Assembly (NCBI GenBank): GCA_000004695.1
Contig: CM000152.2
Span: 4,576,001-4,640,000, forward strand
From: Dictyostelium discoideum
Lineage: Eukaryota
Direction: 5' to 3'
Length of the DNA stretch: 64,000 nt
The notes below the pieces were generated by a model. The model was not told where the DNA came from, ran no database searches, and saw nothing but the letters and a program-made list of their open reading frames with translations. Shown here piece after piece: positions 1-13,900 of the stretch; position 1 is the first letter of the stretch; each line of letters begins with the position of its first letter. A program made the translations under genes and the position numbers.

Positions 1-1120
1 TCCCGTTAATCATTTCAATTCATTAACAAAGACTCGTATACCAATGAGCAACATCAAAAAGATTGTCCGTGATAATATACTAGATGCTCAAATCAATGCT
101 CAAAAGTATTACAACCGAGGTCGTGGTGATGTTATCTTCGTAGTCGGAGAAAAGGTGATGGTTAAAAGAAAATTCTTCCAAACTAATCTTTCAAAAGATC
201 TAATCTCTCACAAACTTGAATCCAAGAATTGTGGACCATTCATAATCACTGCCGTTCATGGTAATAATGTAACACTCGATTTAGTAGGTTATCCAAAGAA
301 ACACAATGTGTTCAACAAAGATCAAATCGTAAAACTATACGAGGACAGTGAGTGGTTAAGAGAAGAGATATCGATGCCGGAACCTGAGGAGATGGACGAA
401 GCAAGTTACGAAGTTGAAAGTATTCTCAATCACGATAAAGTCAAAAAGATGTACCTAGTGAAGTTCAAAGGTTACCCAGAACCTGAATGGATCAAAGAAG
501 TCGATACAGACTGTGAAGAGTTAGTCAGAGAGTATTGGAATAACGTGCAGAAGAAACAATTGAACTCAAGAAGAGAAAGAGAGAATGTAACTACAGAAGC
601 CGTTGAGCCAATTGTGTCACCTCCACTCTCCCAAGAAGTTCAAAGTTCTCAAACATTGCAACCAATTACTCCAAGACAACAAAACTCCATCTCAAATCAA
701 AGAAACCAATCAAAGAAAAGAAAATCAAGAAATCAAAATACTTCAAGTGATGATGATGAACTTGATCTTAGTTTACAAATTAAAACAACTAGATCAGGAA
801 GAAAAGTTACACCCAAGAGTTTATAGTCCACCTCTGAGCCATAGCTAGCCTAAAGAAGGAAGGGGAAGGTGTTAGAGACTCAAAACTAAATTAATTTAAA
901 GTTAGTATGAGCTCAACAACGTAACAAATTCGCGCATCTCCATGTAAAAATATTTCATTTAATTTTTATTTTTATTTTTTAATTTTTTAATTTTTTATTT
1001 TTTCAGTCAAAAAATAAAAAATTAAATTAAAAAAAATTAAATTAAATTAAAATTTAAAAAAATAATAAAAATTCTGATTTTTCGGTTTAGTTGGAATAAC
1101 GCCCTTACTTTTAATTATCT
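1..1120 (+). mobile_element. 3' portion of an LTR retrotransposon (pol 3' end plus presumptive 3' UTR/LTR; LTR boundary not determinable)
   Basis: Chromodomain-integrase ORF ends at 826. It is followed by about 300 bp of non-coding sequence with mixed composition before the AT-rich minisatellite begins. No second LTR copy lies in the window for comparison. Confidence 0.35.
2..826 (+). CDS. Partial (window-truncated) pol ORF of a Ty3/gypsy-type LTR retrotransposon: integrase C-terminal module + chromodomain (Skipper/DGLT-like)
   Basis: Frame is open from nt 2 (no stop before the ATG at 44). 'GPFIITAVHGNNVTLDLVGYPKKHNVFNKDQIV' resembles the C-terminal GPY/F module of retroviral-type integrases. 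It is followed by a clear chromodomain ('YEVESILNHDKVKKMYLVKFKGYPEPEWIKEVD..ELVREYW') and a basic S/Q-rich tail. Stop at 824-826. Confidence 0.7.
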   Translation, partial: PVNHFNSLTKTRIPMSNIKKIVRDNILDAQINAQKYYNRGRGDVIFVVGEKVMVKRKFFQTNLSKDLISHKLESKNCGPFIITAVHGNNVTLDLVGYPKKHNVFNKDQIVKLYEDSEWLREEISMPEPEEMDEASYEVESILNHDKVKKMYLVKFKGYPEPEWIKEVDTDCEELVREYWNNVQKKQLNSRRERENVTTEAVEPIVSPPLSQEVQSSQTLQPITPRQQNSISNQRNQSKKRKSRNQNTSSDDDELDLSLQIKTTRSGRKVTPKSL

Positions 1121-1326
1121 CTTTTATGTATGTTTACTTTTATGATATTAGTCTTTCACTCTTTCTATCCTTCATATTAAAAAACATTACTTTAAAGATT
1201 GGACTGTTTGATAAAAGATTGAACAAATGTGACAATGGATTGAAGATTAGTGTGAGTGACTTTTACAGACAGAATCAACAGAAACATTGGCAGATAAAAT
1301 CACACAGCAAAGAAAAATGCACCTTT

Positions 1327-2045
1327 AAAGCAAATTTAAAGAAAAGTTGATTTAAATTGGATTTAAATTGAATTTAAAGCCGCGTTTAAAAAATTCATTT
1401 TTAAGGTAATTTTTAAGGTAATTTTTAAGATATTTAAAAATGCCTTTAAAATTTGCTTTAAAATAATTTTTTAAGCAATTTTAAAGGTGATTTTAAAGGT
1501 GATTTTAAAGGTGATTTTTAAGGTAATTTTTAAGATAATTTTTAAGATATTTAAAAATACCTTTAAAATTTATTTTAAATTAATTTTAAATAGGATTTAA
1601 AGTAGATTTAAAGTAGATTTAAAGTGAATTTAAATTTCCTTTAAACATAAATTTAAGGTTTTTAATAAAAAAGATCTAATTTTAGAACAAAAAAATGGGG
1701 ATAAAATATTCTATCATTTTTAAATTTTCATCAAAGCAATCAAATGGTGTAATGGTTGATGAGACTACCCTTTAATAGAGGGTCGGGGGATCGAATCCCT
1801 TTTGGTAATTTTTGAAAAATTAAAAAAAAAAATTTTAAAAAATTTATCCGTTAAATAACGGCTTCGAACTCAGGACCTCGCTTTTAAAGCGATTAAAAAG
1901 GTAATTTTAAAGGTAATTTTAAAGGTAATTTTTAAGGTGATTTTAAAGTAACCTTAAAAATTACCTTTAAAATTACCTTTAAAATTGCTTTAATTCAGGA
2001 CTTTAAAGCAAATTTAAATTTAATTTAAAGCGAATTTAAAGGTGG
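1327..2045. repeat. Minisatellite-like array of 11-13 bp TTTAAA-core units (ggtaatttttaa / ggtgattttaaa / tagatttaaag), flanked by direct 'aaagcaaatttaaa' repeats, with a local palindrome centred near 1955
   Basis: Direct reading. Triplicated units occur at 1400-1440, 1485-1535, 1595-1625 and 1895-1945. An inverted arrangement sits at 1921-1985 (…ggtgattttaaagtaaccttaaaaattacc…). 'aaagcaaatttaaa' appears at 1327-1340 and 2004-2017. Confidence 0.6.
1741..1815 (+). other. Degenerate tRNA-like / B-box-like remnant (GGGGGATCGAATCCC). A second, oppositely oriented B-box-like motif lies at 1861-1876 (minus: CCTGAGTTCGAAGCC)
   Basis: T-loop-like 'ATCGAATCC' and an anticodon-arm-like hairpin 'accct ttaatag agggt' are present. 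No full cloverleaf with a 7-bp acceptor stem could be folded by eye. Confidence 0.2.
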
Positions 2046-2730
2046 TTTTTTCTTCGCTGTGATGACATAAAGAAACTGGAGAACGTTAATGCCAACATGT
2101 TATTCAAAGGGGACAGGTGGGCTATCTCAAAAGAAAGGAGCAGAAGAGACTATGAAATTGGAGGCCTGGAACTCTGGAATAGGGACTTAGCATGGAGATA
2201 TCTACTCAAGGCACTTCCAAAACACCATGGGGAGAATTGCCACTCATGTAAAGAAGAAGAATCGTCTATGCACATCTTCTTCGAATGCAAATCAATAAAA
2301 CAGAATATCGACTCAATCTATCAAAAGGTCTGTAAAGACTCCAACAACACTTACCACGGTCCATGGAGCGAAAAAGTTCTCGGAAAACTACTCACACCAT
2401 TCTCATCAAATCTGATAGGAGCCATTATGGAATCGATATGGTACAGAAGAAATCAAATAAAATTCAACGATAACACTACAATAATAACAGAGAACCAAAT
2501 AATTCATAAAATCAAAAAAGCGAGAGATGCCGAATGGGATAGAACAAGAAAGATAGTAGAAAAACAACTACGTCAAGAACTAAGATGCACTGATAACCGA
2601 GAGTCAATCAATCGGACCGCATCAATAAAAAGAAGACTCGAAAAATTCAGCCACAACTGGAACTCGAAACTCATGACCATAAACATCCCGGAACACTTCA
2701 TACCATACTGCTCATATAACACCAACTACT

Positions 2731-2735
<5 letters not shown>
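2040..2735 (+). CDS. Partial ORF2 (C-terminal zinc-finger-like domain) of the truncated TRE-type retrotransposon
   Basis: Same frame as listed ORF 2097..2735, open upstream to 2040. CxxC…H…C motif shared with the intact ORF2 downstream in the window. Confidence 0.55.
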
Positions 2736-2764
<29 letters not shown>

Positions 2765-2856
2765 ATAACAATAATAATAATAATAATAATAATATAATAA
2801 TATAATAATAATAATATAATAATAATAATAATAATAATAAAAATAAGAATAACAAG

Positions 2857-2897
<41 letters not shown>
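2040..2897 (+). mobile_element. 5'-truncated copy of a TRE-type (tRNA-gene-targeted) non-LTR retrotransposon: ORF2 C-terminal Cys-rich region plus an A/AAT-rich tail
   Basis: ORF frame opens at 2040 exactly where the minisatellite ends. The motif 'HGENCHSCKEE…HIFFECKSIKQ' parallels the C-terminal 'CPLCKED…HLFFSCKKTKQ' motif of the full-length element ORF2 at 31943-35647. The stop at 2735 is immediately followed by A27, (AAT)n and A41 through 2897. Confidence 0.6.
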
Positions 2898-2904
<7 letters not shown>

Positions 2905-3211
2905 AAACTCTCCTAGAACACACTCAAATTGAGTGATGTTATTAAAAAAAAAAAAAACTACTTATTTGAAAATATTTAAATATTTAAAAATAAAAGATTA
3001 ATTATAAAATATTAAGATAAATTAAAATAAAAAATATAAATTACAATAACTTGTGTACAAATACTCATTACGTTAGTCCACTTTCGTTACAGGCTAATTA
3101 AACCAATAATTATGTGCATAAAATACTTTTCAATAAGTACCAAAAAGAATCTTAATACAAAGGACCTTTTGAAAAATGTTTTTTTATTGTTTATTTTTTT
3201 AAAAATTTAAT

Positions 3212-4831
<1,620 letters not shown>

Positions 4832-10991: not shown

Positions 10992-13900
10992 TTAACGATT
11001 GAGCCATCTAACTTTTTTGAAACCCCAGAAACTTAAACCAACAAAAATGAAAATGTAACCAAAGATAGCAGCAATATCGATATATCTCATGAATTTATGG
11101 AAACCATAAGTTAACATGAAATCATCACCATTTGTAATTGGACAATAATATTTAATCGCTATTTGAACACCATTTTCAATGATTGGAATTGGTACAGCAC
11201 CTTTATTATTTGTACAAACAAATGTTAAACCTGTGAATTCATTGGTACAAGATGCTTCCAAAGGATACCTGAGCCAGTCTAAATAATGACACCAATAATA
11301 TGCAGATGGATAATTTGGTCTTGCAATGACGAAACCACCAAATAATGTTGCCAATGATAAACCAATACCACATATTGTTGATGCCATAACTTCATTTGGT
11401 AAGCAAACCGCCAGACATAATGCAAACGCATCATACATAATATAGGTGATAATGAAAATGAATAGACAATACCAAAATTTAGATGAATGTCGACCGGAAT
11501 CCAGACCAGCAATCCAAAATGTTGGAATAATATAAAGAATACCAGTTGATAGAATAAATGGATACGATGTTAATACATATGATATCATATATGCCGTTGA
11601 ATGATAGAAACCTGCGGTAACTTCACGATAGAATACACCTCTTTCTAATACTGTTGTTGGAATATTACCAATTGCGACCATACCGGCAAAAAGGAACGAA
11701 AAGAAGAGTAATGAAACACGAGATCTTGCATCCTTTTGTTCATAGTCCATACGAACAAATAGTGTACCTAATAGGACTGCCAACAATATTGAACGAAGAC
11801 AATTTGAAACGAATATTGCTGGACGCCTCAACCGAGATAACCAACTTCTCATACAAAGTGCGCGGAATTGTGTCATCCATGATGAAGCAAACCTTGAATC
11901 ATACGTTTTAACTACAAAGTCATCAGGTATTAATTGTCCTTCCATAATTTCATATTCTTTTTTACAAATATTAGATTCAAAATATGCCTTCTTTGCATCA
12001 AGATGTTCTTGTTCACCATTTGGACCTTCAACCATTTTACCTTCATCAGCTAATGTCATTACGAAATCAGCAGGATTAATATGTGGTTTAATATGCATAC
12101 CTAATTTATCACAATAATCTAAAATCACACTTGACTGATTACCCAATGGCCCAAAATAAATTGTTTCACCACCTTTTTTTAGTAATAATAATTGGTCAAA
12201 GAATTCGAAAATTGCAGCAGATGGTTGATGTACTGTACAAATTACAGTTCTATTCATTACTTTGGCAATTTTATTAACTACATCAATTACTTTAAATGCG
12301 TCACCAGAGTCTAAACCACTTGTTGGTTCATCAAGGAAAAGAATTTCTGGATTTGAAGCTAATTCAACACCAATATTTACTCTTTTTCTTTGCGATACTG
12401 ATAAACCATTTCCAAGTACACCAATCTTTAAATCTTTAATACTTGATAGACTTAAAACTTCAACGATCTTATCAACAAAGATCTCTCTTTCTTCTTTAGT
12501 AACTTCAGGTGGTAGTCTACATCTTGCACTGAATGCAATCGCTTCTCTAACTGTTTGTGTTGGTGGTAAAACATCCATTTGTTCAACATATGCTCTTATT
12601 CTATTTGTAAATTCAGAAGGTGGTTTACCATTAATTAAAATTTCACCAGTGATATGGCCACCAGTTTTTCTTTGAGCTAAAACATCTAATAATGTTGATT
12701 TACCTGCACCTGATGGTCCCATTAATGCTAACATCTATAATAAAAAAATAAAATTAATAATTAGTAATAAATAAATTAAACAAAAGAATATTTTTAAAAA
12801 ACATACTTGACCAGGTTTAACATAACCATCAATATCAGTTAATAGTTGTAATCTTTGACTTTTCTTTTTCTTTGGATTGTCTGGATCATCAGCTTTTACA
12901 TCAACAGCATAACAAAGTTTTTTAAATTGTAAATAACTACCAGTTTCTGAACTTATATCTTTTTGAGAGGTACTTATTGGTTTTTGTTTTGAATGATTAC
13001 CATTTTTTGAAGGAGTATTAACCATTGGTGATAAATTTGTTAATGGGGAATTAACCATTGGTGATAGAGTCGAAGGTGTTTTAACTTTTCTTCTTTTTAT
13101 ATTATTACCGGATCCTGATAAATTATTATTATTATTGTAATTGGGAGATGTTAATGGTGATTTCATATCAATTACAGTATCATCGTCATAGTTTGAAATA
13201 TCAGCATTATCATCATTATCATCACTAACTCTTTCTAATGCTTCAGTAGTAACTTTACAATTTGGCTCTTCATCTTCTTTACAAACAATAACTTTTTTCT
13301 TTTTCTTTAATTTCTTTACTGCTAATTTGGATTTTTTATCTTCAAAATTTAAATATTTCAAAGCAAAGAAACAAACTGAATAAAAGAATACAATATAAGC
13401 ACCTAAAATTGCATAAACAATCCATTTGAAATAATCTGGGTTATTAATACCAAATGCATCCATAATTTGTTCACCAGATGTATATTGACAAACTTGATTA
13501 CCACCGAAACCTTCTGGATATGGTAATAGATTTTGAGGAGTTCTTGGTGGTATTAATTCAGAATCTTTACAACCATACGCTTGATATGTAAATTCATTAA
13601 TTGATAAACCTTGGAAAATCCATGTATAGGGTGATATATAATATAACCAAATCCACCAACCTCCAATATCATTCTTTGGTGCCGTGAAACCTGAAAATAA
13701 TAACCAAATTGAAAGTATTACTGATGCTGTTACATTTGCAATTTCAATTGTTGGTGAAATTGCTGCACACATTTTAGCAAATGATAATGATAAATTATCA
13801 GTTCTAAAAAAAAAAAAAAAAAATTAGGATTTATAAAAATAAATACTTGAATAAATTAATTAAAATAAAAATACATACATAAATAATAAAATCATAAAAT

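Follow-up and report, generated by a model that had tools for sequence, protein, structure and literature searches.

A TTTAAA-rich repeat array in Dictyostelium discoideum lies within a probable nonautonomous DNA transposon nested among retrotransposons

We analyzed a 64,000-nucleotide stretch of the Dictyostelium discoideum genome (contig CM000152.2 of assembly GCA_000004695.1, positions 4,576,001 to 4,640,000, forward strand; here called the window) and found that a dense array of TTTAAA-centered repeats near its left end belongs to a discrete 759-bp element. This element, at window positions 1303-2061, is very probably a noncoding, nonautonomous DNA transposon bounded by terminal inverted repeats (TIRs), similar to miniature inverted-repeat transposable elements (MITEs). 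An earlier note on the same DNA had described a unit of roughly 700 bp at 1327-2045 with direct repeats at its flanks; the real unit is 1303-2061 and carries inverted repeats at its ends. The wider proposal of that note, a small discrete nonautonomous mobile element for which slippage alone is insufficient, was borne out by a precise insertion and by a copy with conserved termini. Among the kinds it had offered, the MITE-like one held, and the short interspersed nuclear element (SINE) and the long terminal repeat (LTR) or terminal-repeat region were rejected. It had also named what would speak against it, a unique occurrence without conserved termini; the unit instead recurs with the same termini in another flank. 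The parts of the element are as follows.

1303-2061, plus strand: probable complete nonautonomous TIR DNA transposon (MITE-like), 759 bp; a near-identical copy with the same ends lies elsewhere.
1303-1329, plus strand: left TIR, CACAGCAAAGAAAAATGCACCTTTAAA, matching the reverse complement of 2035-2061 at 24 of 27 positions (inverted pair I11).
1324-1660, no strand: left subterminal array of 11- to 12-bp TTTAAA-centered units in both orientations (Tandem Repeats Finder, TRF; repeat-finder families D1 to D6).
1738-1808, plus strand: decayed tRNA-like segment (Rfam tRNA model; A-box-like and B-box-like motifs).
1860-1892, minus strand: putative second, partial tRNA-like fragment, read from the sequence and without model-based support.
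1883-2045, no strand: right subterminal array of 11- to 12-bp TTTAAA units, palindrome included (TRF; inverted pairs I2 and I4).
2035-2061, minus strand: right TIR, reverse complement CACAGCGAAGAAAAAACCACCTTTAAA (repeat finder; TIR alignment).

The evidence for mobility comes from a second copy. A locus of assembly GCA_054883475.1 (loci L002 and L003) matches the window at 99.66% identity over 12.7 kb, with differences only in the lengths of homopolymers and microsatellites, and extends leftward past the window by 7.9 kb. There, 7.6 kb upstream of the window copy, a second 759-bp copy (L003 1564-2322) was found that is 98.2% identical to it and has the same ends in a different flank. A BLAST search of positions 830-2060 against the window itself returned low-complexity A/T matches only and no second copy. 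The second copy splits the 5' LTR (starting at L003 1398) of the Skipper-1 retrotransposon whose 3' LTR is window 870-1267. Once 759 bp plus 2 bp were removed from this 5' LTR, it matched the 3' LTR at all 397 positions, with 0 mismatches, whereas removing 0, 1, 3, or 4 extra bases instead of 2 left 142 to 152 mismatches between the LTRs. This identity indicates that the insertion was precise, that it made a 2-bp target duplication (AA), and that the 3' LTR is the paralogous empty site. Insertion of the element into the 5' LTR postdates the insertion of Skipper-1, an event that was also recent, given that the two Skipper-1 LTRs are identical. The element is recently mobile and of an ordinary kind, in a well-studied genome.

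The two copies of the element differ at 14 positions and the two LTRs at none; thus, the LTR copy probably was not derived from its neighbor, and at least one further source copy of the element would be implied. The differences are spread unevenly: the core, with 222 bp, accounts for 10 of the 14, and the arms, with 537 bp, account for 4 (Fisher p = 0.0012); the left subterminal array has only 2 of the 14. This distribution fits a model in which the arms would be needed in cis for transposition and the core would be a passenger.

The limits of the element follow from both inverted repeats and copy comparison. The outermost inverted pair returned by the repeat finder (I11) joins 1303-1353 with 2011-2061, the two TIRs are each 27 bp long and imperfect, and the similarity between copies stops at the termini CACAGC and GCTGTG. 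The list of open reading frames (ORFs) contained no transposase ORF inside the element; the longest ORF wholly within it encodes 37 amino acids (aa) of low complexity.

A relative of the element was found in another strain (L001, assembly GCA_054859385.1). This relative is 2.1 kb long (L001 10878-12977), carries perfect 26-bp TIRs (CACAGCGAAGAAAATCACACCTTAAA) with the terminus CACAGCGAAGAAAA at both ends, has subterminal repeats of the TTTAAA type, and is flanked by TT on either side; its interior is unrelated to the 759-bp element. Common ends around an unrelated interior point to a family defined by its termini, as is the case for deletion derivatives or other nonautonomous forms. The members sit in unrelated flanks, with one copy in ORF sequence of a TRE retrotransposon and one in a Skipper LTR, in addition to the 2.1-kb relative. 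Protein-anchored loci gave a view of about 190 kb of D. discoideum DNA, in which only these three family members were seen; none were found in L004 to L007, L023, and L024 (about 99 kb; two of these are contigs rich in Skipper and DIRS, and two are regions of chromosome 3 nearby). Scans of metagenome and prokaryote genome collections with CACAGCRAAGAAAANNNCACCTT gave 14 matches, which were limited to the pattern itself in unrelated, GC-richer DNA and were rejected as chance.

The structured array reported by the earlier note is real and far above chance. The 759 bp of the element contain 33 TTTAAA motifs, compared with 8.9 ± 2.5 (maximum, 18) in 500 dinucleotide shuffles, and 31 motifs fall in the kilobase 1001-2000, while every other kilobase of the window has at most 10. 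Successive TTTAAA motifs mostly start 11 bp (12 cases) or 12 bp (9 cases) apart, and TRF reported arrays of period 11/12 at 1349-1378, 1397-1546, 1585-1635, 1897-1948, 1942-1986, and 2002-2041. All 12 exact matches to GGTRATTTTWAA in the window fall within the element, 10 on the plus strand and 2 on the minus strand. The three unit types that had been described as each triplicated do exist, but their counts vary: ggtaatttttaa occurs four times, ggtgattttaaa three times together with one ggtgatttttaa, and (t)agatttaaag two to three times. The 14-mer AAAGCAAATTTAAA, said to bound the array at 1327 and 2004, is present at 1327-1340; its second occurrence is at 2005-2018, and it is an internal subterminal motif that marks no boundary. 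Likewise, the mirror symmetry placed at about 1955 is a palindrome centered at 1944/1945, with arms of 47 nucleotides each (1898-1944 and 1945-1991) that are 91% complementary with zero spacer. As single-stranded DNA, this palindrome (1898-1991) folds at -36.6 kcal/mol (z = -11.4). Units in both orientations create local palindromes, and the left array also contains a duplication of 1397-1437 at 1514-1554, a start-to-start spacing of 117 bp. The subterminal arrays have themselves been enlarged through local tandem duplication.

Between the arrays, the core contains traces of tRNA-like sequence. The Rfam tRNA model aligned over its full length (1-71) to 1738-1808 with 12.6 bits, compared with a gathering score of 29. 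Within this segment, an A-box-like motif (TGGTGTAATGG) lies at 1745-1755 and a B-box-like motif (GGATCGAATCC) at 1788-1798, the latter confirming the B box that had been claimed for the core, and a T run (TTTTT) starts two bases past 1808. ARAGORN found no tRNA gene in the core, and the fold was not above shuffles (z = -0.19). In the minus-strand fragment, a B-box-like motif (GAGTTCGAAGCC, the reverse complement of 1860-1871) is accompanied by a small hairpin at 1878-1892 (TCGCTTTTAAAGCGA). The genuine tRNA-Leu genes elsewhere in the window show a normal gene with an external B box, which makes the decay of the core plain. The 222-bp core reads as a passenger made of a decayed tRNA-like segment and a second tRNA-like scrap. 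The two tRNA-Leu(UAA) genes, at 30291-30373 (plus strand) and 37433-37515 (minus strand), are identical, inverted, and about 7 kb apart, and each has its external B box about 30 bp downstream. Downstream of the first lies a non-LTR ORF2 (31949-35098) with about 34% identity to TRE5-A ORF2, presumably of TRE3 type.

Three features suggest the CMC type (CACTA/EnSpm-Mirage): the sequence of the termini, the shortness of the target duplication, and the architecture of the subterminal repeats. Judged by these sequence features and taken alone, such an affinity could go either way. In the EnSpm/Mirage/Chapaev/Transib clade, elements have 5'-CA..TG-3' termini and 2- to 5-bp duplications (PMC12730594); the termini found here, CACAG...CTGTG (CAC..GTG), and the 2-bp duplication agree with this description. 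When the left TIR was compared with nine published CACTA TIRs, Tpn1 and En1 among them (PMC3193017), it aligned from base 1 with that of Tpn1 (CACTACAAGAAAAATGCAC; best, score 12) and also with that of En1 (CACTACAAGAAAA), and 3 of 20,000 random 27-mers from the window scored as high against the nine. Like CACTA/En-Spm elements (dSpm/I and Tpn1 derivatives), the element has several hundred base pairs of ~12-bp subterminal motifs in direct and inverted orientation, and like nonautonomous members of that group, it has an internal region that is unrelated among family members. In En/Spm, the motifs bound by TNPA are short subterminal motifs in direct and inverted orientation. It differs from these elements in its terminal pentamer, which is CACAG rather than CACTA, and in its host, which is an amoebozoan. 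Membership of the element in CMC is unproven and would need the transposase, which in this clade is a DDE enzyme with C(2)C and H(3-4)H motifs.

On this reading, a transposase supplied in trans would recognize the 27-bp TIRs (5'-CACAGC...GCTGTG-3') and would also bind the phased 11- to 12-bp TTTAAA-centered motifs, which lie in both orientations over about 340 bp at the left end of the element and about 160 bp at its right end. After excision by this enzyme, the element would be inserted again through a staggered cut of 2 bp. Both the "minisatellite" and the palindrome would then be subterminal arrays of binding sites.

Several observations weigh against an interpretation of the element as a mobile MITE-like transposon of CMC type. 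Just three members were found in ~190 kb, a copy number that appears low for a classical MITE, and neither a transposase gene with matching termini nor an autonomous relative was found in the same inspected loci. The window copy lacks a target duplication (its flanks are CA on the left and AT on the right), and an extra event is needed to account for it. The informative duplications, AA and TT, both lie in A/T-rich DNA, and each alone may be chance. Classical CACTA elements make a 3-bp duplication; the 2 bp observed here are unlike this and place the element closer to Mirage. Finally, the binding role of the TTTAAA units is a proposed one. We consider it quite unlikely that a CACTA/Mirage-type family was recently active and that its core also still binds TFIIIC/TFIIIB, such that the element would spread portable RNA polymerase III (Pol III) sites. 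If this were true, at least one "orphan" group of D. discoideum DNA transposons would receive a superfamily assignment, and the portable Pol III sites could be new landing pads for the tRNA-gene-targeting TRE, DGLT-A, and Skipper-2 elements or could serve as chromatin boundaries.

A unique, locally expanded, and immobile minisatellite that arose by replication slippage would account for units that are truly tandemly multiplied (12-mer triplets and the duplication spaced by 117 bp). We nevertheless regard it as extremely unlikely, because the entire 759-bp block, nonrepetitive core included, recurs with identical ends in an LTR whose sister LTR lacks it and because another strain has a relative that shares these termini. 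It is hardly more credible that the element is a tRNA-derived SINE, or another retroposed element, mobilized by TRE retrotransposons. As in tRNA-derived SINEs, a T run follows a tRNA-like stretch that has A-box-like and B-box-like motifs, the weak tRNA-model alignment at 1738-1808 covers the full model, and the element lies inside a TRE5-A copy. Such SINEs, however, have a tRNA-related head with a Pol III promoter at the 5' terminus, an A-rich or long interspersed nuclear element (LINE)-like 3' tail, a variable target duplication, and no TIRs, whereas the tRNA-like part here is internal and decayed, begins 435 bp from the 5' end, and scores far below the gathering score. The element has inverted repeats at its ends and no poly(A), A-rich, or LINE-derived tail; its insertion in the LTR has a fixed 2-bp duplication and is not close to a tRNA gene; its tRNA-like core diverges fastest; and no copies were seen with 5' truncation, an A-rich 3' end, or a 10- to 16-bp duplication. 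That the array is part of a retrotransposon terminal region, either of the Skipper LTR or of a TRE5-A module, would agree with its position between the Skipper pol gene and the TRE ORF2 tail, but the chance of this is negligible. Comparison of both LTRs of two Skipper copies sets the LTR at 870-1267, with TG...CA ends and a 5-bp duplication, so that the array lies outside it; the other copy of the element interrupts only one of two LTRs; and intact TRE copies (L004 and L005) contain nothing similar.

Two further explanations accept a repeated unit or a mobile one. The second copy could stem from ectopic recombination or gene conversion between nearby sequences rather than from transposition, as the copies are just 7.6 kb apart within a nest of repeats. 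We consider this very unlikely: the LTR target has no homology to the TRE flanks of the element, the junctions fall at the TIR ends and show the duplication of 2 bp, and the copies differ at 14 positions, the LTRs at none. It is also unlikely, if less so, that the element is a mobile TIR element of another superfamily, either Foldback or Mutator-like and mobilized by the gene with a SWIM finger and Ulp1 protease domain at L001, or a member of an orphan family specific to Dictyostelium. Foldback elements have arms of short tandem repeats in inverted orientation, which the inverted short-tandem-repeat arms of the element recall, and the left TIR of the relative is 150 bp away from a multiexon gene that encodes a SWIM finger and a Peptidase_C48 domain. 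Mutator and Foldback target duplications are 8 to 11 bp long, however, and the one here is 2 bp. The SWIM/C48 gene lies outside the TIR-bounded relative, the 4.5 kb beyond the gene (L022) contain no matching TIR, and the TIR sequence matches ends of CACTA type. D. discoideum transposases have been reported to be unlike any known ones (PMC5633606), a point in favor of another superfamily.

The SWIM/C48 gene deserves a description of its own. It is a multiexon gene on the minus strand at L001 7405-10728 (equivalent to L022 11405-14728), has a Mutator-like layout in which a SWIM zinc finger is joined by an Ulp1/Peptidase_C48 domain at the C terminus, and lies between a Skipper and the 2.1-kb relative, of which it is the only neighboring candidate gene. 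A search of a large protein collection with the SWIM ORF of L001 gave no matches. The gene may be the transposase of another Dictyostelium DNA transposon family.

As a probable MITE-like transposon, the element can be compared with several known kinds. Like the Tourist and Stowaway MITEs, it is short, noncoding, bounded by TIRs, and AT rich, forms strong hairpins, lies inside other repeats, and would be mobilized in trans. It differs from MITEs in its length (759 bp compared with the usual 100 to 600 bp), in its two copies and one relative without any sign of high copy number, in duplications of AA and TT rather than the TA or TAA of Tourist and Stowaway, and in its long structured subterminal arrays and tRNA-like passenger. 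The palindrome resembles hairpins of MITE-derived microRNAs (miRNAs), such as mir-548 from Made1, to which it aligns end to end on both strands, as it does to other hairpin models. The match reaches 42.6 bits, compared with a gathering score of 90, and is that of a generic AT-rich perfect hairpin.

The DNA transposons of D. discoideum include DDT (A, B, and S), thug (S and T), and Tdd-4/5, according to Glockner et al. (2001) as cited in a review (PMC5633606). The element shares its host with these families, which are DNA transposons with orphan transposases and a preference for other elements as targets, and like DDT-S and the thug elements, it is small, a comparison made by description only. 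thug-S carries a hairpin that produces miRNA (PMC4894637 and PMC6161686). On description, the element is also set apart from thug-S, which is reported with an intron-containing gene model, by its lack of an ORF. DDT makes up about 20% of centromeres (PMC2665215), and no CACAGC terminus was found in 41 kb of Skipper/DIRS-rich contigs (L006 and L007); together, these argue weakly against a DDT identity. It is important to note that the repeat catalogue of D. discoideum is considered complete, so that the family is probably listed already under another name, and the balance tips toward a Tdd, DDT, or thug name. The novelty of the family is limited accordingly.

The element lies in a nest of retrotransposons, the main parts of which are listed here. 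The G+C content of the window is about 22%, and its homopolymer and trinucleotide runs are long; the translated flanks are 99 to 100% identical to D. discoideum AX4 proteins.

1-826, plus strand: C-terminal part of Skipper-1 pol with an integrase SH3-like domain and a chromodomain (Pfam Chromo and SH3_Tf2-1, each below its cutoff).
852-869: Skipper-1 polypurine tract.
870-1267, plus strand: Skipper-1 3' LTR, TG...CA, 398 bp (matches both LTRs of another Skipper, in L001).
1268-1272: Skipper target duplication, GACAG.
1268-1302, plus strand: nucleotides 26-60 of a TRE5-A-type ORF1, the left flank of the element (identical to the ORF1 start of the L005 TRE copy, MNKLANTIMTESTETLADKI).
2062-2956, plus strand: tail of a TRE5-A-type ORF2 (aa 707 of P0045 onward), 3' untranslated region, and poly(A), the right flank of the element.
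2957-2969: TRE target duplication, ACTACTTATTTGA, 13 bp.

Skipper-1 is full length, from L003 1398 to window 1267, with a gag of 382 aa and a pol of 1376 aa with a chromodomain; window 1-1267 is its 3' part, and the integrase/chromodomain tail at 2-826 is 99% identical to DDB_G0294358 of D. discoideum. It was inserted at about codon 10 of the TRE ORF1, with the 5-bp target duplication, and would here bear a transposon in its 5' LTR. The TRE5-A-type non-LTR element itself (L003 259-1397 and window 1268-2969) begins exactly 48 bp upstream of a tRNA-Arg(UCU) gene on the minus strand (L003 259-331), which is the distance reported for TRE5 elements (PMC5633606). It contains 4.5 tandem 199-bp 5' modules that are 99% identical, and the 212-aa ORF at 2097-2735 is DDB_G0281479 of strain AX4. 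We rejected targeting of the B boxes of the 759-bp element by TRE5-A, since the target duplication of the TRE and its distance of 48 bp link it with the genuine tRNA-Arg gene.

Two internal deletions affect this TRE5-A copy. One removed aa 746-872 at window 2180/2181, and the other runs from ORF1 nucleotide 60 to ORF2 aa 707, at the element. The window copy of the element is flanked by ORF1 nucleotide 60 to the left and by ORF2 codon 707 to the right and therefore lies exactly on the junction of a deletion that took most of the TRE coding sequence, and its lack of a target duplication is explained by this position. The deletion may have arisen when two copies in the same TRE recombined, or one copy may have caused the deletion next to it.

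A few further observations concern the surrounding sequence. Positions 1192-1212 of the Skipper LTR contain TTAAAGATTGGACT, which has 14 nucleotides in common with the antisense of UCGAACUAGUCCAAUCUUUAAU, the reported small RNA miRNA-like_D4 (PMC4894637); this RNA may be derived from a sequence like the Skipper LTR. In a region of raised G+C (11-20 kb of the window), 15-mers at 12383/18213 and 12865/18709 recur about 5.83 kb apart, which suggests either a repeat present twice or a segmental duplication in tandem. A 539-aa ORF on the minus strand includes long in-frame GGTAAT/GGTGGT and AAT repeats at 3480-3600 and 3900-4000; they specify poly-(GGN) and poly-Asn tracts, as is typical of coding sequence in Dictyostelium. 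A search of a large protein collection with this neighboring gene gave no matches, the repeats probably having swamped the word-based search, and for the next gene, DDB_G0281537, the cluster lookup returned a single-member cluster with no orthologues. Finally, positions 1-890 and 20204-20598 of L007, a D. discoideum contig with Skipper and DIRS-like genes, encode bacterial-type domains (DNA_pol3_alpha/PHP and LpxC), for which a chimeric contig, symbiont DNA, or gene transfer are possible sources.

The result is mostly one of clean-up, in that a "structured minisatellite" becomes an ordinary nonautonomous DNA transposon nested in retrotransposons beside a tRNA gene. For Dictyostelium, the expression and cellular control of DNA transposons had received no detailed study according to a 2017 review (PMC5633606). 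The insertion into one of two otherwise identical Skipper-1 LTRs indicates very recent movement of a DNA transposon in the AX4 lineage, and the window copy, at the junction of a TRE5-A deletion, offers an example of a transposon-associated deletion. Moreover, the CACTA-like terminus together with the 2-bp duplication provides a superfamily assignment that can be tested, for a genome in which the transposases have been reported as unlike known ones.

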